From: an uncultured bacterium
GTDB taxonomy: Bacteria > Cyanobacteriota > Cyanobacteriia > Thermostichales > Thermostichaceae
Assembly: GCA_964429885.1 (NCBI GenBank)
Contig: CAYSEO010000002.1
Location: forward strand, 17,072 to 60,385
DNA length: 43,314 nt
Direction of reading: 5' to 3'
In this document: positions 423 through 43,314 of the stretch, in pieces
Position numbering within the stretch: the first letter of the stretch is position 1
Layout of the letters: every line of letters begins with the position of its first letter
Made by a program: the position numbers and the translations under genes
Notes under the pieces: generated by a model
Database searches by the model: none
What the model was told of the DNA's origin: nothing
What the model saw: only the letters and a program-made list of their open reading frames with translations

Positions 423-1070
423 ATGGATTCGGTGGTGACCCAGGTAGGGGAGGATCTTGATCAACTGAACTCTGGATCTGAACAGCCGCATCCCTGTTGG
501 CTGGAGGTCTGGGTGGATCAGCCTAAACTGAGTGGTTGCTATACCTATCGTGTCCCCGCTCATTTGACGATCACCCCTGGTGACATCCTGGCGGTCCCCT
601 TCGGTAACCAGATGCTCAGTGCCATCGCCCTCCGGTTCATCCCGTCCCTACCTGCGGATCTACAGCCTACCCGGATCCGCTCTGTAGAGGAGGTGGTGGC
701 CGCCGGGATCCTGCCGCCGACATTTTGGCCTCTGTTGGAGAAGGTATCCAGCTACTATCTCACTCCCCTAGCCCAGGTCTTACGGACGGTATTGCCCACT
801 GGATTGCTGAGCCGCTCCCAGAAACGGATCCAGTTACAGACGGCTCCTGTGGTGGCGACGGGATTGTCCCACTCAGCCCAACAGATCCTGACTCTCCTGC
901 AACAGAAAAAGGGAGATCTCTCCTGGACCTATCTGAAACGCCAGATCCCCCAAGCCAGTCAGGGGGTGGTGGAGCTGATCCGGCAGGGCTGGGTGAGCAG
1001 TTACTGGCGCGAAAACTCAGGTCCACAACCCAAGCAACAGCAGGCGGTGACTCTTTGTCATGAGATCTGA
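423..1070 (+). CDS. priA: primosomal protein N-prime (PriA), N-terminal 3-prime-DNA-binding / winged-helix fragment; ends at an in-frame TGA
   Basis: PriA-like N-terminus (YTYRVP...GDILAVPFGNQMLSAIAL...YYLTPLAQVLRTVLP). It is in the same reading frame as ORF 1098..2891, separated only by TGA at 1068..1070. Confidence 0.75.
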   Translation: MDSVVTQVGEDLDQLNSGSEQPHPCWLEVWVDQPKLSGCYTYRVPAHLTITPGDILAVPFGNQMLSAIALRFIPSLPADLQPTRIRSVEEVVAAGILPPTFWPLLEKVSSYYLTPLAQVLRTVLPTGLLSRSQKRIQLQTAPVVATGLSHSAQQILTLLQQKKGDLSWTYLKRQIPQASQGVVELIRQGWVSSYWRENSGPQPKQQQAVTLCHEI

Positions 1071-1097
1071 GAGGATCTGAGCCCCCAGCAACGGGAG

Positions 1098-2891
1098 GTG
1101 CTCCTCTGTTTGAAACGGGCCGGGGGAGATCTATTACTGACGGAGCTGCTGGAGCGAATCAGTACCACCCGAGGCACAGTACAAGCCTTAGCCCGTAAGG
1201 GACGGGTCCAGATCAGTCAACGGCAGATCCTGCGTACCCTACAGGGGCCTGCGGTACCCTCCGATCAGCCCAAGGATCTAACCCCCGCTCAACAACAGGC
1301 GGTGACAGCGGTGGTGGAGACCTTGGATCGGGCTCAGACCTTTCTGCTCCATGGGGTAACGGGATCCGGCAAGACGGAGGTATACCTGCAGGTGATCGCG
1401 CAGGTATTGGCTCGGGGGCGATCTGCCCTGGTGTTGGTGCCCGAGATCGGTTTGACACCCCAGCTAACCGATCGGTTTCGAGCTCGGTTTGGATCCAAGG
1501 TATTGGTTTATCACAGTGGGTTATCAACAGGAGAGCGCTATGACACCTGGCGATCGATGCTTTCCTCCCAGCCTCAGGTGGTGGTGGGCACCCGTTCCGC
1601 CATCTTTGCTCCTTTGCCTCAACTGGGTCTGATCATCCTGGATGAGGAACATGATGATAGCTACAAACAGGATCAACCCCAACCCTGCTACCATGCCCGC
1701 ACCGTGGCCTATTGGCGCTCGATCCTCAGCCCCTGTCCCTTGATCCTGGGCAGCGCTACCCCTGCGGTGGAAACCTATGCTGCCAGTCTGAAAAACCGGA
1801 TCCAGCTCCTGATTCTCCCGGATCGGATCCCCAAAGCTGAGGGTGCTCCTCCCTCCATGCCCCCGATCAGCTTGGTGGATCTACGACTGGAGTTGGAGAA
1901 GGGCAATCGTTCCCCCTTCAGTCAATATTTACAGGAGGCCCTAGATCAGATCGCGGAACGACAGGAACAGGCGATCTTGTTTGTCCCCCGGCGGGGCTAC
2001 AGTACCTTCGTGCTCTGTCGCAGTTGCGGTGAACCTCTCAGCTGTGATCACTGTGATGTCTCCCTCACCTTCCACCAGACGGGCCAACATCTGCGCTGTC
2101 ATTACTGTGGTGATCGGCAGGTCTATCCCGATCACTGCCCCAGCTGTGGATCCCCCTATCTGAAACATTTCGGCAGTGGCACCCAACGCATCGAAGATCT
2201 GATGGCTCAACGCTGGCCCCAATTGCGGCTGCTCCGCTTCGATAGTGATACCACCAGTCGCAAAGGATCCCATCGAGAGATCCTGGATCGGTTCAATCAG
2301 GGGGAGGCGGATGTGTTAGTGGGCACCCAGATGTTGACCAAGGGCCTGGATGTACCTCAAGTCACCTTAGTGGGGGTCTTGGCTGCTGATGGGATCTTGA
2401 ATCAGGCGGACTTTCGGGCCGCTGAACGATCCTTTCAACTGCTGACCCAGGTAGCCGGACGAGCCGGACGGGGAGAACGAGCCGGACAGGTGATCATTCA
2501 AACCTATCTACCCGAACATCCCACCCTGCAATCGATCCGTAATTATGACTATGGGCAATTCATCACCCAGGAGCTCAGCCAACGTCAGGACAGTGGTTAT
2601 CCCCCCTACCGTAATCTGATCTTGATCCGACTCAGCAGTCCCGATCTCACTCGCCTACAACAGGGATGCCAACAAGTGCGGGAGCAACTAGAGGGTGTTC
2701 CGGCAGAGATCTTGGGGCCTTGCCCGGCTCAGGTGGAACGGGTGAGTGGACGCTATCGCTGGCAGATCCTCTTGAAGGAGTTGGACTCTGATCCTTGGCA
2801 ACGAGGCCGCTTAGCTCCCCAGTTGATGAGTTTGCGGGCACCGGCGGAAGTACGGATCAGCCTGGATGTGGATCCGTTGCGGATCCTGTGA
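1098..2891 (+). CDS. priA: primosomal protein N-prime (PriA), helicase core, Cys-rich zinc region and C-terminal domain
   Basis: Walker A GVTGSGKTEVY and DEEH box ILDEEHD. Cys cluster CRSCGEPLSCDHCDVSLTFHQTGQHLRCHYCGDRQVYPDHCPSCGS. Helicase motif GTQMLTKGLD. The frame continues upstream through EDLSPQQREV to the TGA at 1068. Reading 423..2891 as one frame gives 823 codons including the internal TGA and the terminal stop. Confidence 0.9.
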   Translation: MLLCLKRAGGDLLLTELLERISTTRGTVQALARKGRVQISQRQILRTLQGPAVPSDQPKDLTPAQQQAVTAVVETLDRAQTFLLHGVTGSGKTEVYLQVIAQVLARGRSALVLVPEIGLTPQLTDRFRARFGSKVLVYHSGLSTGERYDTWRSMLSSQPQVVVGTRSAIFAPLPQLGLIILDEEHDDSYKQDQPQPCYHARTVAYWRSILSPCPLILGSATPAVETYAASLKNRIQLLILPDRIPKAEGAPPSMPPISLVDLRLELEKGNRSPFSQYLQEALDQIAERQEQAILFVPRRGYSTFVLCRSCGEPLSCDHCDVSLTFHQTGQHLRCHYCGDRQVYPDHCPSCGSPYLKHFGSGTQRIEDLMAQRWPQLRLLRFDSDTTSRKGSHREILDRFNQGEADVLVGTQMLTKGLDVPQVTLVGVLAADGILNQADFRAAERSFQLLTQVAGRAGRGERAGQVIIQTYLPEHPTLQSIRNYDYGQFITQELSQRQDSGYPPYRNLILIRLSSPDLTRLQQGCQQVREQLEGVPAEILGPCPAQVERVSGRYRWQILLKELDSDPWQRGRLAPQLMSLRAPAEVRISLDVDPLRIL

Positions 2892-4284: not shown

Positions 4285-5172
4285 ATGGCAATGATCGGTG
4301 ATCTTGAGGACTTTGGATTGGCAGAGCTGTTACAAGTGATAGGGCGAGGCAGCAAGAGTGGTCAGCTCTCCGTTTGGACCCCTTCAGGTGTGTCTCACAT
4401 CTGGTTTTATCAAGGACGAGTGGTTGCAGCCTCGCCTCCAGGTGGACAACCGGATTTACAACAGCGACTGCAGCAAAACCCAGAGATCCAGGTTCAGTGT
4501 GGTGGATCTGCTGAACGGGTAGTGACCAAGCTAGCTAACCTCTGCGGTCCGAGCACCCACCCCTTGGGTGCCTGTGTGAGGAAGCAGGGGTTGATCTCAG
4601 GGGGGGGGTTGACCCTGGTGTTTCGTCAGCAACTTCAGGATGGGGTTTACCCCCTATTTGAGTTGGAGTCTGGGCAGTTTAACTTTAATGCCAAGGCTCC
4701 TATCCCTTATGGAGAGATGACGGGGTTGAGCAAGGAATGTTTGGATATTGCCATCGAGGGACTGCGCCGGGTCAAGAGCAGAGATCAACAGATCCGCAAC
4801 CTGCCGTCGGCTGAGGCCTGTTTCTGTCGCACTTCTGATGATCTTCCCCTCGCTAGACTTTCCCCTGTAGAGTGGAACGTGTGGGAAAGGGTTTCCCCCC
4901 ACCGACTGCTACAGGAGATTGCCCAGGAAATGGAGATCGATCTGCCCACCATTCAGTACACCTGTGGACGCTTGTTACAAGTGGGTTTGATTCAAGAGAC
5001 GGTCCATTCCTCGTCAGTTGCTCAGCCCTCAAAGGTCCCTGGTAGCTGGGAGGCTCTGGATGTGATCTCCTCTGACCCTGCAGAACCCGAGAGAGAGAAG
5101 GAACCCATCAACAGTTCCTTGCTCAATCGGCTGGCCTCAGCCCTACGTGGGATCCAGAAGAATAGGCGTTAA
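4285..5172 (+). CDS. DUF4388 / PATAN-domain protein
   Basis: N-terminus MIGDLEDFGLAELLQVIGRGSKSGQLSV matches the characteristic DUF4388/PATAN opening (G-L-x-F-x-L-x-E-L-L-Q). Contains a G9 tract at 4600..4608. Confidence 0.7.
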   Translation: MAMIGDLEDFGLAELLQVIGRGSKSGQLSVWTPSGVSHIWFYQGRVVAASPPGGQPDLQQRLQQNPEIQVQCGGSAERVVTKLANLCGPSTHPLGACVRKQGLISGGGLTLVFRQQLQDGVYPLFELESGQFNFNAKAPIPYGEMTGLSKECLDIAIEGLRRVKSRDQQIRNLPSAEACFCRTSDDLPLARLSPVEWNVWERVSPHRLLQEIAQEMEIDLPTIQYTCGRLLQVGLIQETVHSSSVAQPSKVPGSWEALDVISSDPAEPEREKEPINSSLLNRLASALRGIQKNRR

Positions 5173-5317
5173 GCCTAGCTTTGTTCCCGATCTCCTCGTT
5201 GCACCCAGTTGGAGGTCATGGAATCTGTATGAGTTGGAGCTACTAAATATTGAGATACAGTGCATCGTTATGGGCACGATATCTTGTTCGAAGTGCTGAC
5301 ATCACAGGAGGATAATT

Positions 5318-5686
5318 ATGCCAGACATGGCATCTTTGGAAGAACTACTCAGGAACTTTGTTTCTTCTACCCAGGATGTTGAGGGTGCTGCCATTGTGAC
5401 CCCGGATGGTCTTCCCTTGGCTTCCGTTTTACCTGCCGGGATGGACGAGGAGCGCACCTCAGCCATGTCCGCAGCCATGCTGTCCTTGGGAGAAAGGATT
5501 GGTAGAGAATTGGTGCGAGGCGGGATCGAACGGATCTTCGTACAGGGAGACAAGGGTTATGGAGTCCTGACCAGTTGTGGACAGGATACGGTGCTGTTGA
5601 CTCTTGCCAATGCCCAGGTCAAGCAGGGCCTCCTTTTCCTGGAGATCAAGCGGGTGAGTGAAAGCATATCTGTGGCGATGCGATAG
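5318..5686 (+). CDS. Roadblock/LC7 (MglB-like) domain protein
   Basis: Strong SD (ACAGGAGGATAATT-ATG). Sequence VEGAAIVTPDGLPLASVLPAGMDEERTSAMSAAMLSLGERIGRELVRGGIERIFVQGDKGYGVL is typical of Robl/LC7/MglB. Confidence 0.85.
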   Translation: MPDMASLEELLRNFVSSTQDVEGAAIVTPDGLPLASVLPAGMDEERTSAMSAAMLSLGERIGRELVRGGIERIFVQGDKGYGVLTSCGQDTVLLTLANAQVKQGLLFLEIKRVSESISVAMR

Positions 5687-5776
5687 CACTCCTCAGCAAT
5701 TCTGAATCGCCCATGATCGACAGAGCTGACTATTCTAGTCTTCCCAAGAAATTTCACATCATGACGGAGTTTGACA

Positions 5777-8064: not shown

Positions 8065-8130
8065 TTGATACGGAATGGGTGGACCTGTTGTCCTACCGTG
8101 AGGGATGCAGCGTTGCACAGGATCTACGGC

Positions 8131-9450
8131 ATGAGTGAGGAACGAAATCTTGGCATCTTTTCCATCGCGGCCCTGTTGGTCTCGATCCATTACGGCATGG
8201 GCTTCATGTTGGGGACAGCGGAGAAAGCCTTTAGTCAGGGGCTAGCAGGGAGTTTGTACGCTCTCTCCATCAGTGGGGGGACGTTGGCATTATTGGGGGT
8301 GAGTCAGTTCTATTGGCGTGAGATCGACCAGATCTGGACGTTGTTTGGACAGCAGTATGGTGAGGGATCGAAGCGATTAGTGGGGGTAATGTCGTGGCTT
8401 TCCCTGATCGGGATTGGGGCGGCGCAGCTGATCTCAGGTTTGTTTATCTTGCGGGCATTACATTTACCTGTGATCCCTGGTTTGATCACGTTAACGATAG
8501 TTTGTGGGATCTTATCATTGTTGCCGGTGGAGAAGGCCAGTTGGATCTTTAGAGGGCTATTGCTGGTTAATATGGGTGTCCTCTTATATGGGGTTTGGCT
8601 GCTGCATGGGATGCCCGCCTATGTCCAAAGTCCGCTGGAGTTTTGGCCTGCTTTAGAACAGCTGGATAGGGTCAAGATCGTTGGGATCTCTCTACCTACT
8701 ATCCTATTGATCTCCATCGATATGCGCTGTCAACAGGTGGTGATTAAAGCGAAGGATCACCGCAGTTTATGGTGGGGCTGTGTGCTAGCGGCAGGGATCT
8801 TTGTCATGTTGGCGCTATTGCCCTCGGCCTTGATGGGAGCGGCTCAGGAGGCGGGGATCCTGCCTGCAGAAGTAGGTGGAAAGGAAGCCTTATTGTATAT
8901 CTTGGCCTGGATCGGGGGTGGTGGAGATCGACCCTTGGGGATCGGGTTGGTGGCGGTGTTGTTGGTGCCTGCCTTGGGGGCTGGTAGTGGGGTCTTGAGA
9001 ACTCAGACGAAGGCGGCCATGGATTTTGTACGGTTTCTACCCAGTGCCCAAGCTAATCGCCTTTTATTTACCGGGATCAATGCCAGCTTATGTCTGGCTC
9101 TCGCACTCAAAGGGAGTGAGATCGTGGATCTGATCGTTTGTTTCTATGCGGTCTATGTGGGGGCAGTTTGGGTGCCCTTCCTGGCCTATTGGGCGCAGCG
9201 AACCAGACGATATCCCTTTGCAGATTCCAGTGTCAGACGATCTTTGATTGCAGGCAGCTTGGCGGCCACATCGGGACTGCTGATCACCCTGAGCTCTCCG
9301 GATTGGCGACTTTGGCATAGCGATGTTTTGACGGTCTTGATCATGGGAAGTAGCGTCGGGATCCTGTGTTTATTGATCAATCAAGGGCTGGTGTTTCTGC
9401 AGTCTGCCACTGAAGCGGATGAGGCGATCCAGGAGGAGGGTTTATCCTGA
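8131..9450 (+). CDS. polytopic membrane transporter (sodium:solute-symporter-like; function uncertain)
   Basis: About 12 hydrophobic segments. I favour ATG at 8131 (MSEERNLGIFSIAALL) over the ORF-track start 8065, which abuts the lpxD stop. Confidence 0.6.
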   Translation: MSEERNLGIFSIAALLVSIHYGMGFMLGTAEKAFSQGLAGSLYALSISGGTLALLGVSQFYWREIDQIWTLFGQQYGEGSKRLVGVMSWLSLIGIGAAQLISGLFILRALHLPVIPGLITLTIVCGILSLLPVEKASWIFRGLLLVNMGVLLYGVWLLHGMPAYVQSPLEFWPALEQLDRVKIVGISLPTILLISIDMRCQQVVIKAKDHRSLWWGCVLAAGIFVMLALLPSALMGAAQEAGILPAEVGGKEALLYILAWIGGGGDRPLGIGLVAVLLVPALGAGSGVLRTQTKAAMDFVRFLPSAQANRLLFTGINASLCLALALKGSEIVDLIVCFYAVYVGAVWVPFLAYWAQRTRRYPFADSSVRRSLIAGSLAATSGLLITLSSPDWRLWHSDVLTVLIMGSSVGILCLLINQGLVFLQSATEADEAIQEEGLS

Positions 9451-12494: not shown

Positions 12495-14267
12495 TCAGCG
12501 ATTGGGATCGGCTAGGTTTCTAAACTGAGTAAACTGATTCTCAAACAGGAGCTTGACCGTACCGATGGGGCCATTACGATGTTTGGCGATGATCACCTCG
12601 GCGATCCCCCGTTCATTAGTATTGGGATCGTAATACTCCGGTCGGTAGAGCATCATCACGATATCCGCATCCTGTTCGATACTGTTATGGACCAGGATCT
12701 TATTGGCGACAAAGTTGTGGTGGCGAGGCATCTCGATGTCATACACCTCCACAGGCTCTGAGGGATCACTGATGGATTGGATCGGATCCCAGATCAGCTC
12801 ATCTTGGATCGCCAGAGCGATCTCCTCATCCAATTGTAGATCGTCCAAAGATTTCCAGCCGGATCGGGTAAAGAAGGGATGGTTGCCGGTGGCCTGGATC
12901 TCATGTCTGAGCCGAGTGGTGAGGGTATAAACGGACTTGCTGCCATTGGAAAACACCTTGACGGGTTGTTGCGGCACCAATCGTCCCCGAGCATTCAAAC
13001 TCATCAATCGGGGTAAAGATCGACTGGCGGTATTGAGCAATTGCACCAGCGTCCAGGTCTTACCCGTGTCCACATCCAACACTGTGGTATCTCCAACCAA
13101 ACAGCCGGATTCCCTCAGATCTGACAATTGAGGGCGCTTATCAGAACGGGATTCCACAGCCCGACTCAGCTGAGAAAGCACCACCACCGGGGCAGAGAGC
13201 TCCTTAGCTAATCCTTTGAGCCCACGGGACATGCGGGACAGCTCCTGAACACGGTTGTCTGAGGTGGAACCCTGCATCAACTGCAGATAGTCGATCAAGA
13301 TCATGCCCAAAACCCCTCCGGATTCGGCTTGCAGACGACGGGCTTTGGAGCGGATCTCAGTCACATTACAATTGGGGGTATCGTCAATGTAGATCGGGGT
13401 CTGGGCCAGATAGCCAAACGCCTGACTCAAACGCTGCCATTCATTCTCACTGATCCGACCGGAGCGGAGCCGATTGCTTTCGATCCGAGCCTCACTGGCT
13501 AACATCCGCTGTACCAATTGTTCCCGCGACATCTCCAGGCTAAACACCGCCACGGGTAATCGTGAATAGGCCGCCACATTGCGGGCCACATTCAAAGAGA
13601 AACTGGTCTTACCCATAGAGGGCCGACCCGCAATAATGATCAGATCAGAGGGCTGCAGACCCTGGGTAATGTTGTCCAGATCGATAAACTTGGTGGGGAT
13701 CCCTGGTAGATCGGAATCCCCCTGAAACTTCTCCTCCAGATCGGAAAAGATGTTCAGTAAGATCTCCGAGGCTGGCATCAGTGCCCGTTGGATCCGTTCC
13801 TGGGTGATACCAAAGATCTCCTGCTCGATCTGATCCATGATCTGGGGGATCGGCTGGCTGGTGTCGTAGGCAAACTTGGCAATGGAGTTGCTGGCCTCGA
13901 TCAGCTTGCGGCGGGTGTACTTATCCAGCACCAGCTTGGCATACTGATCGATATTGATGCTACTGACGGTTTGATCCAAGAGCCGCCGGATGGACCCCGG
14001 TCCCCCTACCTTATCCAGCCGACCGTGATCATCTAGGTGCGCCGTCACCGTCATCAGATCCGTGGGCTGCCCCTGACTGTGGAGCAACAGGGCCGCTCGA
14101 TAGATCTCCTGATGGGCCGTGATGTAGAACGCCTCCGGTCGCAACAGCTCCGCCACCCGAGTTAAGGCGTCCGGGTCCAAGAGGATCCCCCCTAAGATCT
14201 CCTCCTCTGCCTCGATATTTTGTGGGGGTAGCCGGTCGCCACCCGTCAGATCGTAATCATTGGCCAC
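12495..14267 (-). CDS. dnaB: replicative DNA helicase DnaB, containing a mini-intein
   Basis: PPQNIEAEEEILGGILLDP N-terminus, Walker A AGRPSMGKTSF, Walker B MILIDYLQLM. At 590 aa it is about 140 aa longer than a typical DnaB because of the insertion between RESG and SIEQDADIV. Confidence 0.95.
   Translation of the reverse strand: MANDYDLTGGDRLPPQNIEAEEEILGGILLDPDALTRVAELLRPEAFYITAHQEIYRAALLLHSQGQPTDLMTVTAHLDDHGRLDKVGGPGSIRRLLDQTVSSINIDQYAKLVLDKYTRRKLIEASNSIAKFAYDTSQPIPQIMDQIEQEIFGITQERIQRALMPASEILLNIFSDLEEKFQGDSDLPGIPTKFIDLDNITQGLQPSDLIIIAGRPSMGKTSFSLNVARNVAAYSRLPVAVFSLEMSREQLVQRMLASEARIESNRLRSGRISENEWQRLSQAFGYLAQTPIYIDDTPNCNVTEIRSKARRLQAESGGVLGMILIDYLQLMQGSTSDNRVQELSRMSRGLKGLAKELSAPVVVLSQLSRAVESRSDKRPQLSDLRESGCLVGDTTVLDVDTGKTWTLVQLLNTASRSLPRLMSLNARGRLVPQQPVKVFSNGSKSVYTLTTRLRHEIQATGNHPFFTRSGWKSLDDLQLDEEIALAIQDELIWDPIQSISDPSEPVEVYDIEMPRHHNFVANKILVHNSIEQDADIVMMLYRPEYYDPNTNERGIAEVIIAKHRNGPIGTVKLLFENQFTQFRNLADPNR
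12684..13103 (-). mobile_element. DnaB mini-intein (140 aa, no homing-endonuclease domain)
   Basis: Starts with Cys (TGT; ACA on + strand at 13101..13103) in CLVGDTTVL (block A). Block B ATGNHPFFT, block F VYDIEMPRHHNFVAN, block G ILVHN, then +1 Ser (SIEQDAD). Only about 40 residues lie between blocks B and F. Confidence 0.9.
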
Positions 14268-36314: not shown

Positions 36315-36974
36315 TCACTCCCGTATCAAGCTGAGCTGCCCCTCCATGACCTCCAGTCGATCGACATCCTGGAGCAGATCCTGTAGCTCTTGTAACGGAG
36401 GTTGATCGTTTTGGGGATCGGAGAGCAACTCAAAGATATTGATATCTTGCCAGTCAGCGAGAACCTGCTGCTTGACCTCATCGGGCAACTCTTGACCTGC
36501 AAAATCAAAGTCTGTGATGCTGGCCAGGAGTTGATCGTTTTCCACGGACAGAGCGATGGAGAAACTGCCGTTTAGATAGCGTCCTGAGAAAAAGGGAATG
36601 CCCTCCAATGGGACCGATCCTTGAGCTGAGAGCTGATCCTCATCGATATTCACGAAAGTCTTGCCTGCGATGACTGGGTTATCCGCGATCAGGGCATTGA
36701 TATCCTCCTCTGTCAGGACCAATTCATTCACCTGATCTGATTCCTGAAAATCCTCAATCCGCTGTCTGATCTGATCCACCTGACCGGGTGCCGGGTCAGC
36801 GACTGGGATCGGGGCAGGTTCCTCAACCGTGAGGGAAAGTAGGGCCTCTCTAGCGCTATAGAGAACGAATGCCGTACATCCTCCAACCCCCAAAGCCAAG
36901 ATCCCAACCGTCAGACAGCCCCAGAACAGACATCCAGGTCCTTTTCTCGCTTCCCCTGAAGAACTCATTGCCAC
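36315..36974 (-). CDS. membrane-anchored acidic hypothetical protein (219 aa)
   Basis: N-terminal TM helix (CLFWGCLTVGILALGVGGCTAFVLY) followed by a D/E/Q-rich soluble part. It lies 75 nt downstream of the histidine kinase on the same strand. Confidence 0.6.
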   Translation of the reverse strand: MAMSSSGEARKGPGCLFWGCLTVGILALGVGGCTAFVLYSAREALLSLTVEEPAPIPVADPAPGQVDQIRQRIEDFQESDQVNELVLTEEDINALIADNPVIAGKTFVNIDEDQLSAQGSVPLEGIPFFSGRYLNGSFSIALSVENDQLLASITDFDFAGQELPDEVKQQVLADWQDINIFELLSDPQNDQPPLQELQDLLQDVDRLEVMEGQLSLIRE

Positions 36975-40025: not shown

Positions 40026-41192
40026 GTGATGATCAGCACCGCTCTGGACCTCGGGAGAGTTGAGGATCTGATGGCATCCTCTGTGGGTCAGGTCTTCCCC
40101 TGTGGGCAACTCCAGATCCATTGGCAGGATCAGGTGATCTGCTCGCAAGCTTATGGTCAACTTCAGGTGGATCACCCCTGCACGCCACAACATCAGTTCG
40201 ATATCGCCTCGATCACCAAACTTTTCACCGCCACAGCTTGGCTCCGGCTCGCCTCCCAGAGAGATCTGGATCTGGAGGGATCGGTACAGCTACTTTTGCC
40301 TGAGATCGCCACTCCCCGACCGCTGGGTTCCTACGAGGATCCCCTACACCCCGGCCAATGGATCACCCTCTCCCCTCAGACAGACCCCATGGAGCTTATC
40401 GATCCTCAACAGCTCACCTGGCGGCAGTTGCTCACCCATAGCTCTGGCTTGCCTCCTTGGCGTCCCCTGTTTCGCTGTCCCAATCGGCAAGCGGCGGTTG
40501 AGATGGCCCTGGGCACCTGCTTCAGTTACCCACCGGGCACGCAGGTGCGTTACAGCGATATTGGCCTGATCTGGATCGGTCTGGCCCTAGAACGGCTGAC
40601 AGAGATGCCCCTCGATCAAGTCATCCAATCCCAGGTGATCGAACCCTTAGGTCTAAAGGACACGGGGTTTCGACCCGTCTCTGATGATCCGATCCCCCAA
40701 CCCTTGCATTGGGATCCTGTGGACTCCATCGCGGCCACGGAGGACTGTCGCTGGCGAGGCAGACGGATCCGGGGCGAGGTTCATGATGAGAACGGGGCTC
40801 GTCTCGGGGGAGTGGCGGGTCATGCGGGCTTGTTCTCCACCGCTGCCGATCTGGCTCGCTTCGGTCAGTGCTTTCTGTCTGGGGGCTTGCCGCTCCTCGA
40901 TCTCTCCACTCGGGATCAGATGATCCAACCCCATGCCGAACAGGGGGATCACCGTCGGGGACTGGGGTTCGCGCTGCGATCTGCTCACCCTGAGGCCAGT
41001 AGCTTTCCTCTCAGCGCAGGAGCCTACGGACACACCGGCTTTACGGGCACCTCCCTCTGGATCGATCCCCATCATTCTCTGGTGGTTGCCTGTCTCACCA
41101 ACAGCATCTACTACGGACGAGATCACAGCGGGATCTTGCCCTTTCGGGTAGCCCTACATGAGGCCATTGTGTCAGCCCTAGAAATCCTCTAA
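40026..41192 (+). CDS. serine hydrolase, beta-lactamase/transpeptidase-like (class C / esterase family)
   Basis: SxxK motif ASITKLF, YSD (YxN position) and HTG (KTG position) in YGHTGFTGTS. Confidence 0.85.
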   Translation: MMISTALDLGRVEDLMASSVGQVFPCGQLQIHWQDQVICSQAYGQLQVDHPCTPQHQFDIASITKLFTATAWLRLASQRDLDLEGSVQLLLPEIATPRPLGSYEDPLHPGQWITLSPQTDPMELIDPQQLTWRQLLTHSSGLPPWRPLFRCPNRQAAVEMALGTCFSYPPGTQVRYSDIGLIWIGLALERLTEMPLDQVIQSQVIEPLGLKDTGFRPVSDDPIPQPLHWDPVDSIAATEDCRWRGRRIRGEVHDENGARLGGVAGHAGLFSTAADLARFGQCFLSGGLPLLDLSTRDQMIQPHAEQGDHRRGLGFALRSAHPEASSFPLSAGAYGHTGFTGTSLWIDPHHSLVVACLTNSIYYGRDHSGILPFRVALHEAIVSALEIL

Positions 41193-41663
41193 CAGGGGAC
41201 CCAGACGGGCTAGGACCGGATCCGCCTCTTTGGGTTGAGGAGCGGGCTGAGAGGGGGTTGCCTGCCCAGATCCTGCGGCCAATGCATCCACCCGAGAGGC
41301 CAATTGGACCAGATCGGACTCCAATTGGTTGAGCCGGTCTGCCTCAGGAGCCAAGGACTGCAGACGTTCCTCCAAGGCTGCGATCTGCCGCTTCAGCTCC
41401 CCTAGGGTTTCCAGATCCGTGGCATCTGAGCCAGGCACATGTCCGTTCTCTGGGGAAGCCTCGGCCTGTTGCATGTACTGTTGGACCACATGTTTACAGA
41501 GGTCGCTAAAGCTGGAGAAAGAGGACTCTGAGAGAAACTCCTCGATAGAGGTGAGCAGCTCCTGTTCGGTCTCCAGATCGAAGGTCACCGACTTGCTGGA
41601 TTTGGTCGGGACGCGTTGGGTTGAGGTGCGACTGGATCGGCTGGAACGACGGGATTGTGCCAT
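41178..41663 (-). CDS. ParR-like adaptor candidate: basic N-terminus, short beta-strand/helix segment and C-terminal coiled coil (161 aa)
   Basis: SRRSSRSSRTSTQRVPTKSSKSVTFDLETEQELLTSIEEFL (possibly ribbon-helix-helix-like), then LGELKRQIAALEERLQSL...LNQLESDLVQLASRVDAL. It lies 31 nt downstream of the ParM-like gene. Confidence 0.5.
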   Translation of the reverse strand: MAQSRRSSRSSRTSTQRVPTKSSKSVTFDLETEQELLTSIEEFLSESSFSSFSDLCKHVVQQYMQQAEASPENGHVPGSDATDLETLGELKRQIAALEERLQSLAPEADRLNQLESDLVQLASRVDALAAGSGQATPSQPAPQPKEADPVLARLGPLLEDF

Positions 41664-41694
41664 AGAGATCCTCAGGTAACAACTAATGCAAAGC

Positions 41695-42753
41695 TTAGGT
41701 CGATTCCGCTGCTGCCGGTCGGAGATTCATCTTATGCAACTGCATCTCACCGTAGAGGAACTGACCCAGGACATTGGCCTTACGAGAGGGATCCGCCAGG
41801 TGAGCTTTCAGATTGGCCTCCTCCATTAACGGCAACAGCTCCTCCCAGAAAAAGGCCCCACCACCCCCTGTGATGATGACCTCTGTGGCCCGTTCCGGCA
41901 ACCAGTTCAACAGGCGACCCGAGATATCGTTGGCGAAATTACGCTTCAGGGTGGGCAAGATCTCGTCTAGATTGGTGGGCTTTTTGGCCCCGCGGGGACG
42001 ATATAACCGTTCTCCCTTGGGCTTATGGACTGCAGCGATCAGGGATAGGGATTGGGCATCTGCCCCCTCGATTTGGTTGGCCACCAGCTCGTAGAACTGA
42101 CTCATAGCAAACCCCTCACTGGAGGAGGCCCCTCGGGCAAACCGGAACCGATCCACCATCAAAAAATCTGTGGTCTGATGACCGATATCGACGATGGCCA
42201 CGGACAGATCCTTGAAGCTAACTCCCTTCTCCCCCTGAGCCTCAGCCCACAACAGACTGCCATAGCCCTCCGGTACCACCCACACCTCTGGAATAGAGAC
42301 GGTGATGGGATTACCTCGAAACATCATCTGGTGTTTACGCAGGATCAGCTGAGTGATCTCGGTTTTCTCCTGCTCAAACTTTTCCTGAGAGAGATAGGGA
42401 ATGCCTAACACCACCATCACCTCATCGTGGACATGGAGGAGTCCAATACAAGCCAACATCCGCACCAGAGCATCCTGCACTTTCGAGCGTCCGATACCTA
42501 GATCCGCCTGTAGGTCTGCGGCTAACTGGCCCACGGCGTAGTAATCGTTGCGGTATTCCAACCAGATATCCAGTAAAGGATCGGTGGATTGTTCGTCAAA
42601 TCCCCCATGGCTGATCTCAGAGGAGGTTCCCTGCTTGACGTTAGCGGGCACCAGGATCACCTGTTCAGGATCGCGGTTGATGCAGGCCTTAGAGGAGGTG
42701 CGGCCCAGATCGATACTCAGCAGGTAGGGGGACGCGGATGGTGATGAACTCAT
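41695..42753 (-). CDS. actin-like ATPase of the ParM/StbA type
   Basis: Phosphate-1 LLSIDLGRTSSK, phosphate-2 AIVDIGHQTTDF and adenosine motif VIITGGGGAFF. The connect region VVPEGYGS is also ParM-like. Confidence 0.75.
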   Translation of the reverse strand: MSSSPSASPYLLSIDLGRTSSKACINRDPEQVILVPANVKQGTSSEISHGGFDEQSTDPLLDIWLEYRNDYYAVGQLAADLQADLGIGRSKVQDALVRMLACIGLLHVHDEVMVVLGIPYLSQEKFEQEKTEITQLILRKHQMMFRGNPITVSIPEVWVVPEGYGSLLWAEAQGEKGVSFKDLSVAIVDIGHQTTDFLMVDRFRFARGASSSEGFAMSQFYELVANQIEGADAQSLSLIAAVHKPKGERLYRPRGAKKPTNLDEILPTLKRNFANDISGRLLNWLPERATEVIITGGGGAFFWEELLPLMEEANLKAHLADPSRKANVLGQFLYGEMQLHKMNLRPAAAEST

Positions 42754-42898
42754 AGGATCGAACGGACCTCCAGATCGCCAGCGAGATAATTGCCTGACTC
42801 GTTCCCAATTATTCCATTAGATCTGGGTTTGACCAGACGGAATTGAGCAGCAAGTCCGATTTCCTAGAATAACCTTATCGGGCTAGGGTCTTACACCC

Positions 42899-43282
42899 TT
42901 AGGCTTTGCCATCGGGATACAGCCGGATCAGTCCCTTCCGAGCGGCATTGTGAACCTCTAGAGGGGCGTCGCTGCGTAACAGTTGACGATACAGGGCCTC
43001 AGCGGTCTCTAGGCTGCCCAGTTCCCGATGTTGATCTGCCATCTCCAGTAATCGATGCACACTGGGGCTCTCCCCCTGGGTCTGTAGGACTCGGATCTCC
43101 TCCAATCGCTCCAACACCATAGGCCGGAGGGTGAGGGTCCCATCCAGATCCAGCACCTCCCGGTAAAAGCGTTGGGCCTCTCGATACTGCTCTTGTTCGT
43201 CGTAAGCTTCCGCCAACTGGAGGGCGATCTCGGCAATATGAGGGGTGGCTCGATCCAGAAACTGTCGATGTAAGGCATCCAT
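42899..43282 (-). CDS. TPR-like helical repeat protein (127 aa)
   Basis: Helix-turn-helix repeats such as ALQLAEAYDEQEQYREAQRFYREVLDLD and LETAEALYRQLLRSD. Same strand as the ParM-like gene and upstream of it. Confidence 0.5.
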   Translation of the reverse strand: MDALHRQFLDRATPHIAEIALQLAEAYDEQEQYREAQRFYREVLDLDGTLTLRPMVLERLEEIRVLQTQGESPSVHRLLEMADQHRELGSLETAEALYRQLLRSDAPLEVHNAARKGLIRLYPDGKA

Positions 43283-43314
43283 GCGACGGCTGAGGGGGGT
43301 GCCCTTGTGGGGCT

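Follow-up and report, generated by a model that had tools for sequence, protein, structure and literature searches.

Organization of the corM–corR locus

Two adjacent genes on the minus strand of the window (the whole 43,314-nt stretch of DNA that was analysed) encode an actin-like ATPase and a small adaptor protein. They are named here after CorM and CorR of Anabaena sp. PCC 7120 (Springstein et al., bioRxiv 10.1101/2025.06.27.661541; PDB 9rmi), which correspond to FcmB and FcmC of Nostoc punctiforme (Nguyen et al., mSphere 2025, PMC12645912; NCBIfam NF052678 and NF052682). The open reading frames of 352 and 161 codons and the 31-nt gap between them stand at the positions given by an earlier sequence-only reading of this DNA. 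The features of the locus are as follows:

42754..42898, minus strand: corM upstream region, 145 nt, with GGAGG 13 nt before the corM ATG
42808..42835, minus strand: promoter-like site 5' of corM, TGGTCA, 16 nt, TG-extended AATAAT (promoter scan)
41695..42753, minus strand: corM (fcmB), 352-aa actin-like, ParM-derived ATPase (ORF call, profile and PDB matches)
41664..41694, minus strand: corM–corR spacer, 31 nt, with a Shine–Dalgarno-like GAGGA 6 nt before the corR ATG
41178..41663, minus strand: corR (fcmC), 161-aa ParR-derived adaptor protein (ORF call, FcmC profile, synteny, AF2 layout)
41592..41663, minus strand: CorR residues 1–24, polybasic Ser/Thr/Arg tail MAQSRRSSRSSRTSTQRVPTKSSK (residue counts, predicted disorder)
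41457..41591, minus strand: CorR residues 25–69, ribbon-helix-helix (RHH) region with strand SVTFD, helices 33–46 and 52–69 and the conserved FSDLCK
41265..41420, minus strand: CorR residues 82–133, long helix H5a, coiled-coil-like (AF2 model)
41181..41222, minus strand: CorR residues 148–161, C-terminal helix H5b DPVLARLGPLLEDF, predicted CorM-binding peptide

The two genes are likely to form an operon because a scan of the spacer (41664..41694) detected no terminator-like site; fcmB and fcmC are co-transcribed in N. punctiforme (PMC12645912). A corR homologue lies directly downstream of corM in 73 of the 80 related loci examined, which confirms the synteny of the pair. The order TPR–corM–corR–bla–HisK is also present in a relative at 82% CorM identity. 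Neither the TPR nor the beta-lactamase-fold gene is a conserved partner of the pair (0 of 80 related loci). The TPR gene, which the sequence-only reading had noted upstream of the pair and described as small, co-occurs with corM in the closest relative only and is a lineage-specific neighbor rather than a part of the module. Its frame is open to the window end, and the part inside the window corresponds to the last 126 residues of a 307-aa protein of that relative.

The contig also carries the housekeeping genes priA, lpxD, pabB, dnaB, rplI, aspC and cimA, and no relaxase, replication, integrase or transposase gene was found near the pair. The chromosomal setting proposed earlier therefore holds, and the contig is not plasmid-like. 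An Rfam scan of the window gave no match.

Repeat searches of the corM upstream region (42754..42898) found no tandem repeats that could represent parC-like iterons, in agreement with the sequence-only reading, and returned short two-copy matches only. The site at 42808..42835 is a candidate promoter, identified by consensus match only, and both of its hexamers fall in blocks conserved with the closest relative (L081). The 7-bp inverted repeat noted earlier (ATAATTG-N13-CAATTAT) is present at 42784–42810. One of its arms is the −10 box of the promoter-like site and the other is not conserved in the alignment to L081, and the repeat was rejected as an operator on the latter ground.

CorM is a member of the FcmB family

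The window CorM scores 540.3 bits against the FcmB profile NF052678, well above the equivalog cut-off of 300, and matches the PDB CorM chain 9rmi over residues 7–341 (E = 9e-135). Pfam assigns ALP_N and MreB-like_C domains. The nucleotide-binding motifs (phosphate-1 SIDLGRTSSK, phosphate-2 VDIGHQTTD and adenosine ITGGGGAFFW), which had been recognized as actin-fold elements in ParM-like form, are real and invariant in a 20-sequence alignment; the invariant positions in the same alignment include D15–G17, D189–T194 and G296–G299. Distant ParM/StbA similarity is detected by Pfam and NCBIfam (PRK13917, 54 bits), and relatives of the protein are annotated in source records as 'plasmid segregation protein ParM'. 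The score against the ParM equivalog NF010498 is, however, 54 bits versus a cut-off of 417, identity to cyanobacterial plasmid ParMs is 23–29%, and the CorM clade separates from plasmid ParMs in 100 of 100 bootstraps. Profile and phylogeny place the ATPase in this polymerizing, ParM-derived clade and not among sugar-kinase or Hsp70-like families.

About 11 residues precede the first strand of the fold in the window CorM and the ORF is not extendable, so that the protein has no counterpart of the disordered N-terminal region, ~40 residues long, found in Nostocales CorM. The region has been reported from the chromosomal clade only, and its removal from Anabaena CorM gives a mutant-like phenotype (10.1101/2025.06.27.661541). 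Short N-termini are also common to the homologues from Elainella, Oculatellaceae, Phormidesmis and Leptolyngbya, so the disordered region does not occur throughout the clade. Filaments that are antiparallel and double-stranded, show dynamic instability and associate with the membrane are known for Anabaena CorM only (10.1101/2025.06.27.661541).

Architecture of CorR

The window CorR scores 79 bits against the FcmC profile NF052682 (E = 4.7e-22), below the cut-off of 90. Scores fall along a gradient from Nostocales (234) through Coleofasciculaceae-type sequences (197), Nodosilinea (145), Leptolyngbya PCC 7375 (121) and Phormidesmis (110) to a low end formed by Elainella (81), the window, L081 (77) and two further relatives, L020 (65) and L002 (56). 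The shortfall of the window protein is divergence from the seed lineages, not missing homology, and it arises because a Ser/Arg tail replaces the amphipathic helix.

An AF2 model of CorR alone, computed from a single sequence (mean pLDDT 65.6) and used for its secondary-structure layout alone, contains helices at residues 33–46, 52–69, 82–133 and 149–159 and a disordered stretch at 134–147. Within the long helix, 10-residue block means are 89–95 pLDDT over residues 91–130, and matches to coiled-coil families are weak. The RHH strand is not predicted in the monomer model; it is assigned from the conserved KSVTF, with the RHH designation borrowed from the published description of CorR (10.1101/2025.06.27.661541). 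The predicted architecture is that of published CorR: RHH, H5a, disordered linker and H5b. The Ser/Arg-rich N-terminus, the short strand and the long helix singled out by the sequence-only reading are all present, and the protein is indeed longer than classical ParR.

Three motifs (KSVTF, FSDLCK and the C-terminal DPxLxRLxPLLEDF) are common to the window CorR and its homologues, 73 of which were aligned. The pattern DP[LVI][LI].RL..[LF][LI][ED][DE]F is the terminal motif of nearly all 70 extracted homologues, and DPVLARLGPLLEDF fits it. By analogy with Anabaena CorR, in which deletion of residues 150–162 abolishes CorM recruitment (10.1101/2025.06.27.661541), this segment is the predicted CorM-binding peptide.

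A polybasic tail in place of the amphipathic helix

The N-terminal amphipathic helix of CorR is described as a Nostocales/Oscillatoriales innovation, and Anabaena CorR without it loses both membrane binding and function (10.1101/2025.06.27.661541). We compared tails by hydrophobic count, aromatic count and net charge. The Nostocales N-terminus, MFQWSKKVVK, contains four hydrophobic residues, including two aromatic ones, whereas residues 1–24 of the window CorR have one hydrophobic residue, no aromatic residue and a net charge of +7. By these counts, the membrane-binding helix (residues 1–10) is absent from the window protein. A hydrophobic-moment scan on the Eisenberg scale was dropped, since arginine dominates the score and amphipathic and polybasic tails are not separated. 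The tail is predicted to be disordered in the AF2 model and is more conserved than the rest of CorR; 17 of its 24 residues are kept in L081, and its pN is 0.12 versus 0.29 for the whole of corR.

The missing helix, together with the FcmC score of 79 against 90 and the missing CorM disordered region, speaks against the CorMR assignment.

Membrane tethering by the window CorR must be treated as an assumption by analogy, because the protein lacks the helix that Anabaena CorR needs. From its sequence, any tether cannot be that helix. We infer that the Ser/Arg tail attaches to the anionic surface of the membrane by electrostatic attraction, and it could be tunable by Ser/Thr phosphorylation.

Host lineage and nativeness of the pair

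CimA and PriA from the contig group with Thermostichus and SM2_3_2 (neighbor-joining bootstraps 151/200 and 190/200), which places the source organism, on these two proteins, with Thermostichales, an order that branches early and whose cultured representatives are unicellular. Its nearest named relatives are likewise unicellular. Both 2025 papers describe the system as confined to filamentous, multicellular cyanobacteria and date chromosomal capture to the ancestor of Nostocales/Oscillatoriales or of heterocyst formers (10.1101/2025.06.27.661541; PMC12645912), and FcmB was absent from all unicellular strains in a 126-species survey (PMC12645912). The Thermostichales-affiliated host thus falls outside the reported range of filamentous Nostocales and Oscillatoriales.

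In a CorM tree rooted with distant plasmid ParMs, the window clade is placed near the base, but with weak support: only 39 of 100 bootstraps keep it out of the crown. It is about equidistant (60–65%) from every sampled CorM lineage and nested in none; the nearest sequences by identity include Elainella and Egbenema (62–64%). Searching for the exact sequence of the window CorM matched no public contig. No CorM relative above 66% identity was found in a genome-collection scan and none above 68% in a metagenome scan, and among Logan-derived proteins only three are at 79–83%: the lineage is poorly sampled. The plasmid-borne CorM-like proteins of Nostocales are 51% identical to the window CorM and 71–72% identical to Nostocales chromosomal CorM. 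They were dropped as an outgroup, being closer to the latter than the window protein is.

GATC density is lower in the pair region (13.9/kb) than in the window (21.8/kb), at a ratio of 0.64 (0.56 for corM alone). The dip reported earlier as about half the background is real in direction, but it ranks no lower than the 4th percentile among sliding windows, and comparable values (13.5–14.5/kb) occur in several housekeeping genes. The observed/expected ratio is 3.2–3.9 in the pair versus about 1 in orthologues of other lineages, and GC3 is host-like. Depletion of GATC was accordingly rejected as an indication that the pair is foreign, because it shares the host's strong enrichment. Relative to the closest relative, dN/dS is 0.11 for corM and 0.38 for corR. 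The pair is native to the Thermostichales-affiliated genome and under purifying selection.

A probable CorMR module on the chromosome and its possible origins

We consider it probable that the pair is orthologous to cyanobacterial CorM/CorR (= FcmB/FcmC), a ParM/ParR module fixed in the chromosome and turned into a cortical cytoskeleton. The system itself was published in 2025, is modeled in NCBIfam and has been solved in the PDB; what is new here is the host lineage and the adaptor tail. CorMR, or FcmBC, goes back to a ParMR system that the chromosome captured; its ParR-derived adaptor tethers filaments to the membrane, and its role is in cell shape, not DNA segregation (10.1101/2025.06.27.661541; PMC12645912). 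Deletion mutants of Anabaena have rounded cells and show no defect in DNA segregation; the filaments are cortical and dynamically unstable, and there is no parC (10.1101/2025.06.27.661541). The independent results from N. punctiforme agree (PMC12645912). Experiments on these orthologues thus bear out the earlier proposal of a domesticated, ParM/ParR-derived chromosomal module. The accompanying idea of a cytomotive system with a cellular cargo does not fit, since the orthologous filaments form a membrane-tethered, shape-controlling cytoskeleton at the cortex.

By analogy with these orthologues, polymerization, membrane tethering and a role in cell shape would extend to the source organism. CorM would bind ATP and assemble into dynamic filaments, which a CorR dimer would capture through its C-terminal helix DPVLARLGPLLEDF and tether to the inner face of the cytoplasmic membrane. 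The filaments would then encircle the cell and could influence lateral wall growth and cell width, with no part played by centromere DNA. The conserved, disordered Ser/Arg tail would substitute for the amphipathic helix as the tether. Since the system has been reported in filamentous cyanobacteria only and the nearest named relatives here are unicellular, the cellular role in the source organism may differ. Control of CorM by an N-terminal extension of MinC is probably absent, because that extension is reported to be unique to Nostocales.

How the module came to be in this lineage can be read in several ways. An ancient horizontal transfer to a unicellular relative of Thermostichales from a filamentous cyanobacterium similar to Leptolyngbya, with a modified function such as rod shape alongside MreB and unrelated to multicellularity, is possible though on balance doubtful. 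It would accommodate the unicellular habit of cultured Thermostichales, the survey in which unicellular strains lack FcmB (PMC12645912), the weakly supported CorM root and the presence of Elainella and Egbenema among the nearest sequences. However, the window clade is nested in none of the sampled lineages and stands about equally far from each, and its GATC enrichment is strongly ameliorated, so any transfer must be old.

More speculatively, CorMR may be older and wider than published, either chromosomal before Thermostichales and the remaining thylakoid-bearing cyanobacteria diverged or the marker of an unrecognized filamentous or shape-plastic lineage within the order. The window CorR would then preserve a state before the amphipathic helix, its tail binding DNA or, in a phosphorylation-switchable manner, anionic membrane. 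If so, the pair would be a living intermediate between a plasmid segregation machine and a cell-shape cytoskeleton.

DNA-contacting N-terminal arms exist in RHH proteins such as ParG and omega, and the basic, flexible, hydrophobic-poor tail ahead of the window RHH strand recalls these arms more than an amphipathic anchor. This likeness, the near-basal position of the window clade, the early-branching host order and the description of the helix as a later-lineage (Nostocales/Oscillatoriales) innovation would suit an intermediate or ancestral adaptor that still binds DNA, on the chromosome or another replicon, for type II-like positioning or segregation or to autoregulate its operon. We regard this as improbable: neither iterons nor a conserved palindrome were found upstream of corM, the basal position is recovered in only 39 of 100 bootstraps, and the window CorM sits firmly inside the chromosomal clade. 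Moreover, Anabaena-type CorR has an identical KSVTF strand, and in EMSA it bound neither of the two fragments tried, one being the promoter region of its own gene and the other E. coli parC (10.1101/2025.06.27.661541). A plasmid ParMRC cassette, on an unrecognized plasmid or left by a recent plasmid integration and without cellular function, is very improbable in spite of the distant ParM/StbA similarity, the ParM annotations of relatives and the 51%-identical genes on some Nostocales plasmids, given the housekeeping neighbors (priA, dnaB, rplI, lpxD, cimA) with no mobile-element genes nearby, the lack of an upstream parC, the ParM equivalog score, the host-like GATC signature and GC3, the synteny and purifying selection shared with a sister species, and the plasmid copies themselves, which are secondary because they nest within Nostocales chromosomal CorM and lack corR.

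For the preferred CorMR assignment, the presence of a native copy under selection in a genome affiliated with Thermostichales implies a much deeper origin of the system, an old horizontal transfer or an unsuspected morphology in the order. The amphipathic helix is the one feature shown to make ParR a membrane adaptor, and the window CorR, which lacks it, is a natural variant for studying the evolution of membrane anchoring and the need for it.

Comparison with known systems

The window pair resembles Anabaena CorMR and Nostoc FcmBC in its chromosomal corM–corR order, the absence of parC, a CorM above the FcmB cut-off and a CorR with RHH, long helix, linker and C-terminal peptide. It differs in the 24-residue polybasic tail that stands where Nostocales CorR has the MFQWSKKVVK helix, in a CorM devoid of the ~40-residue disordered region and in a host affiliated with Thermostichales rather than Nostocales/Oscillatoriales. 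The CorM-like genes of Trichormus variabilis ATCC 29413 plasmid A and Dolichospermum pUHCC0315c belong to the same CorM clade, but they are plasmid-borne, nested within Nostocales and followed by no corR homologue.

Type II ParMRC is the evolutionary source of CorMR (10.1101/2025.06.27.661541; PMC12645912), and the window pair shares with plasmid R1 and its relatives the sequence of an actin-fold ATPase and then a small RHH adaptor, in which a C-terminal helix is the ATPase-binding element (predicted for the window CorR). Unlike those systems, the pair is not plasmid-borne, has no parC iterons and encodes a longer adaptor than classical ParR. Anabaena CorR is reported to lack helices H3 and H4, and it is the only CorR for which binding to membrane instead of DNA has been reported (10.1101/2025.06.27.661541).

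The likeness to the MreB rod complex is a functional analogy. Filaments of both CorM and MreB are actin-like, membrane-associated and run around the cell, and loss of either rounds the cells of filamentous cyanobacteria. CorM, however, derives from plasmid actins and is no MreB paralogue; it is anchored through a separate adaptor, whereas MreB uses its own membrane-binding surface, and its filaments are dynamically unstable, whereas the movement of MreB is driven by peptidoglycan synthesis.

Identity and gene organization of the corM–corR pair

The window contains a copy of a known cytoskeletal system, CorMR of Anabaena or FcmBC of Nostoc punctiforme, with a divergent adaptor N-terminus and in a host that the published range does not cover. 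The relevant features are:

42899–43314, minus strand: TPR gene, frame open to the window end
42835–42808: promoter-like site (TGGTCA, 16 nt, TG-AATAAT); one arm of an inverted repeat is its −10 box
41695–42753, minus strand: corM, reading frame of 352 aa
41178–41663, minus strand: corR, reading frame of 161 aa

Both reading frames of the pair lie where a sequence-only reading had placed them, separated by a 31-nt spacer with GAGGA 6 nt ahead of the corR ATG. The corM product contains Pfam ALP_N (E = 7e-16) and MreB-like_C domains. Its phosphate-1 (SIDLGRTSSK), phosphate-2 (VDIGHQTTD) and adenosine (ITGGGGAFFW) segments are invariant columns in a 20-sequence alignment, bearing out the actin-fold motifs claimed in that reading. 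CorM scores 540 bits against the NCBIfam equivalog ‘filament morphology actin-like protein FcmB’ (cut-off 300), and residues 7–341 align with PDB 9rmi ‘CorM’ (E = 9e-135). With the plasmid ParM equivalog the score is just 54 bits, where the cut-off is 417.

Two 2025 papers describe the orthologues. Springstein et al. renamed the chromosomal ParMR of Anabaena, whose locus has no parC, as CorMR; deletion of corMR rounds the cells and leaves DNA distribution undisturbed, and the cortical CorM filaments, which MinC clears from the poles, are antiparallel, double-stranded and dynamically unstable (10.1101/2025.06.27.661541). Nguyen et al. independently reached the same picture for FcmB/FcmC of N. 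punctiforme (mSphere, PMC12645912): cells that lose either gene are no longer rod-shaped, and FcmB filaments encircle the cell circumference, their membrane localization requiring FcmC. The sequence-only reading was thus right in its central idea, chromosomal domestication of a plasmid actin system, although this has already been published. Judged by its orthologues, the system would shape the cell through ATP-driven CorM filaments that CorR tethers to the membrane.

Genomic setting

The housekeeping content of the window (priA, lpxD, pabB, an intein-bearing dnaB, rplI, aspartate aminotransferase, citramalate synthase and metabolic genes) agrees with its earlier description as chromosomal, and no replication, relaxase, integrase or transposase genes were detected among the rest of the window. 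DnaB (12495–14267, minus strand; 590 aa) carries an intein splicing domain (Pfam PF14890) inside its C-terminal helicase domain. The priA gene (about 432–2891, plus strand) has an in-frame TGA at 1068–1070, where an 86%-identical relative has Cys (HEI*EDL versus DSCDDL). The frame is homologous to PriA on either side of the stop, with the result that gene callers give a 593-aa, N-terminally truncated PriA; the TGA could reflect an error in sequencing, a nonsense mutation of recent date or read-through. A 461-aa frame (8065–9450, plus strand) has no Pfam or NCBIfam match, and a 219-aa frame (36315–36974, minus strand), scanned against Pfam only, has no match there.

A search upstream of corM found no tandem or iterated repeats, confirming the reported lack of parC-like iterons. 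The 7-bp inverted repeat noted there exists; the promoter-like site that includes one arm is kept in L081, the closest relative locus, and the other arm is not. The TPR gene is present as described but is not small: its frame runs off the window end, leaving about 138 codons inside the window, and this part corresponds to the last 126 residues of a 307-aa TPR protein in L081. None of the 80 other loci has a TPR gene beside corM, which marks it as a lineage-specific neighbour. On the other side, a gene for a beta-lactamase-fold, PBP4B/AmpH-like serine hydrolase (40026–41192, plus strand) runs towards corR and shares 15 nt with its 3′ end, an arrangement retained in L081 and not in other lineages. 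The proximity of a cell-wall enzyme gene to genes for a cell-shape cytoskeleton may be meaningful or coincidental.

The pair is a long-resident part of the genome

GATC is the top over-represented tetranucleotide of the window, with 944 sites (21.8 per kb; observed/expected 5.7), and the excess holds across all flanking contexts. The HIP1 sequence (GCGATCGC) has no copy in the window. A sister organism in Logan sample SRR27364934 is represented by three contigs, carrying relatives of CorM (82%), CimA (92%) and PriA (86%), and all three have GATC ratios of 6.4–6.8; the signal is weaker in Thermostichus Nb3U1 (2.7) and MAG SM2_3_2 (3.1). The signature was compared for window positions 1–43314 and loci L081, L089, L090, L091 and L092; most other cyanobacterial loci are near 1. 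The excess looks like a lineage signature, and is possibly a Dam-type methylation or repair signal that replaces HIP1.

The pair shares this signature, with GATC at 3.2 times expectation in corM and 3.9 times in corR, against values near 1 in corM orthologues from other lineages. Its GATC density, previously put at about half the background, is indeed lower (ratio 0.64), but housekeeping genes reach values as low. The pair has a GC3 typical of the window, the order TPR–corM–corR–bla–HisK is common to the window and the 82% CorM relative, and dN/dS is 0.11 for corM and 0.38 for corR. The pair has therefore long resided in the genome under selection, and is neither a recent insertion nor a plasmid remnant.

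CorM phylogeny

A scan of GTDB (one genome per species) with a CorM alignment returned at least 556 relatives, from which 80 loci were retained. Window CorM is 60–65% identical to every other sampled CorM lineage and forms a clade with three Logan relatives (97/100 support). The CorM clade is monophyletic (100/100) with respect to four cyanobacterial plasmid ParMs (23–29% identity). The window clade lies near the base of the CorM tree, outside the remaining crown in just 39/100 replicates; with support for the root position this weak, the presence of corMR in the window lineage could be due either to ancient vertical inheritance or to a horizontal transfer of old date.

CorM-like genes on Nostocales plasmids (L082, L083 and L084, on pUHCC0315c, T. 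variabilis plasmid A and pNPM2) are 51% identical to window CorM and 71–72% identical to chromosomal Nostocales CorM, within which they nest in a neighbour-joining tree. None of the three has a corR homologue downstream. They thus appear to be orphan copies of chromosomal origin, and look like secondary escapes to plasmids.

CorR architecture and the N-terminal tail

In 73 of the 80 loci, the gene that immediately follows corM encodes a homologue of window CorR. A KSVTF-type strand, an FSDLCK motif and a C-terminal DPxLxRLxPLLEDF motif are common to nearly all of the 70 extractable homologues; the window counterpart of the last is DPVLARLGPLLEDF. Window CorR matches the FcmC model with E = 4.7e-22 and 79 bits, missing the curated cut-off of 90. 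FcmC scores drop smoothly with distance from Nostocales (234, 197, 145, 121, 110), ending with Elainella 81, the window 79, L081 77, and the GTDB loci L020 (65) and L002 (56), which argues that the missed cut-off reflects divergence and not missing homology.

The Ser/Arg-rich N-terminus and strand (KSVTFD) described earlier are present, as is a long helix. Single-sequence AlphaFold2 (mean pLDDT 65.6) predicts disorder in residues 1–28 and a linker (134–147), and helices at 33–46, 52–69, 82–133 (long and confident) and 149–159 (C-terminal). As modelled, window CorR has the published layout. Anabaena CorR binds the membrane via an amphipathic helix at residues 1–10 and recruits CorM via a C-terminal helix, residues 150–162 (10.1101/2025.06.27.661541). 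The homologue in L059 (Geitlerinema sp. BBD 1991-9; about 5090–5749, 220 aa) carries two tandem copies of the RHH region, TVTFTSDEGDRALLDRVEQTLKQSDYNTFSELAKS followed by NVTFATEEGDRALFDRVEQTLKQGDYDSFSELAKE, and may be a single-chain RHH dimer.

Homologues from Nostocales, Coleofasciculaceae-type lineages and Nodosilinea have an amphipathic segment before the strand (MFQWSKKVVK-like or MVLKWLRQTKK-like). Window CorR has MAQSRRSSRSSRTSTQRVPTKSSK at this position, 24 residues with a net charge of +7, one hydrophobic residue and no aromatic; the L081 segment is MAPSRRSSRTSRTSTRRMSTKSTK. Unlike Anabaena CorR, the window protein therefore lacks the amphipathic helix that defines membrane binding and has a polybasic tail in its place. 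Compared with L081, the tail has changed less than other parts of CorR (17 of 24 positions match; pN 0.12, versus 0.29 for the whole gene), and it is therefore functional. It would bind anionic membrane electrostatically, possibly under regulation via its serines. Because the published anchor is missing, membrane tethering is uncertain in the window lineage, and the tail may instead have a DNA-binding role; in EMSA, Anabaena CorR shifts neither its own promoter region nor E. coli parC (10.1101/2025.06.27.661541). Window CorM also differs from Nostocales CorM, lacking an N-terminal disordered region of ~40 residues that is likewise missing from many Leptolyngbya-like homologues.

L002 and L020 are the two GTDB loci whose CorR tails (16 residues of Ser/Thr/Lys/Arg) contain no hydrophobic residue. 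Their GATC ratios are 3.2 and 4.3, HIP1 is absent, and they cluster with each other among the early branches of the CorM tree, adjoining the window clade. Their sources may be related lineages that likewise branched early.

Host lineage and comparison with the published range

Window citramalate synthase is 75–77% identical to those of Thermostichus vulcanus, ‘Synechococcus’ Nb3U1 and R65.1, and at most 68% identical to named homologues from other orders; between these values lie a few metagenomic sequences with vague names or none. For PriA, identity is 64–67% with Thermostichus and SM2_3_2 and 62% with PCC 7336, and does not exceed 59% with other named orders. Neighbour-joining trees place the window with Thermostichus (bootstrap 151/200 for CimA and 190/200 for PriA), joined by SM2_3_2 in the PriA tree. 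Among the thylakoid-bearing orders, Thermostichales branches earliest; the members in culture are unicellular, and MAGs alone represent an early mesophilic branch (PMC11304991; PMC10156173).

CorM homologues (L035; proteins P0062, P0050 and P0096) also occur in MAGs labelled as unicellular taxa (Gloeomargaritaceae C42_A2020_066, Cyanothece sp. SIO1E1 and a Chroococcales cyanobacterium). FcmB was reported missing from all unicellular strains in a 126-species survey set; either these labels or bins are unreliable, or that claim needs re-examination. Both system papers give the host range as filamentous Nostocales/Oscillatoriales (10.1101/2025.06.27.661541; PMC12645912), whereas the window host is affiliated with Thermostichales.
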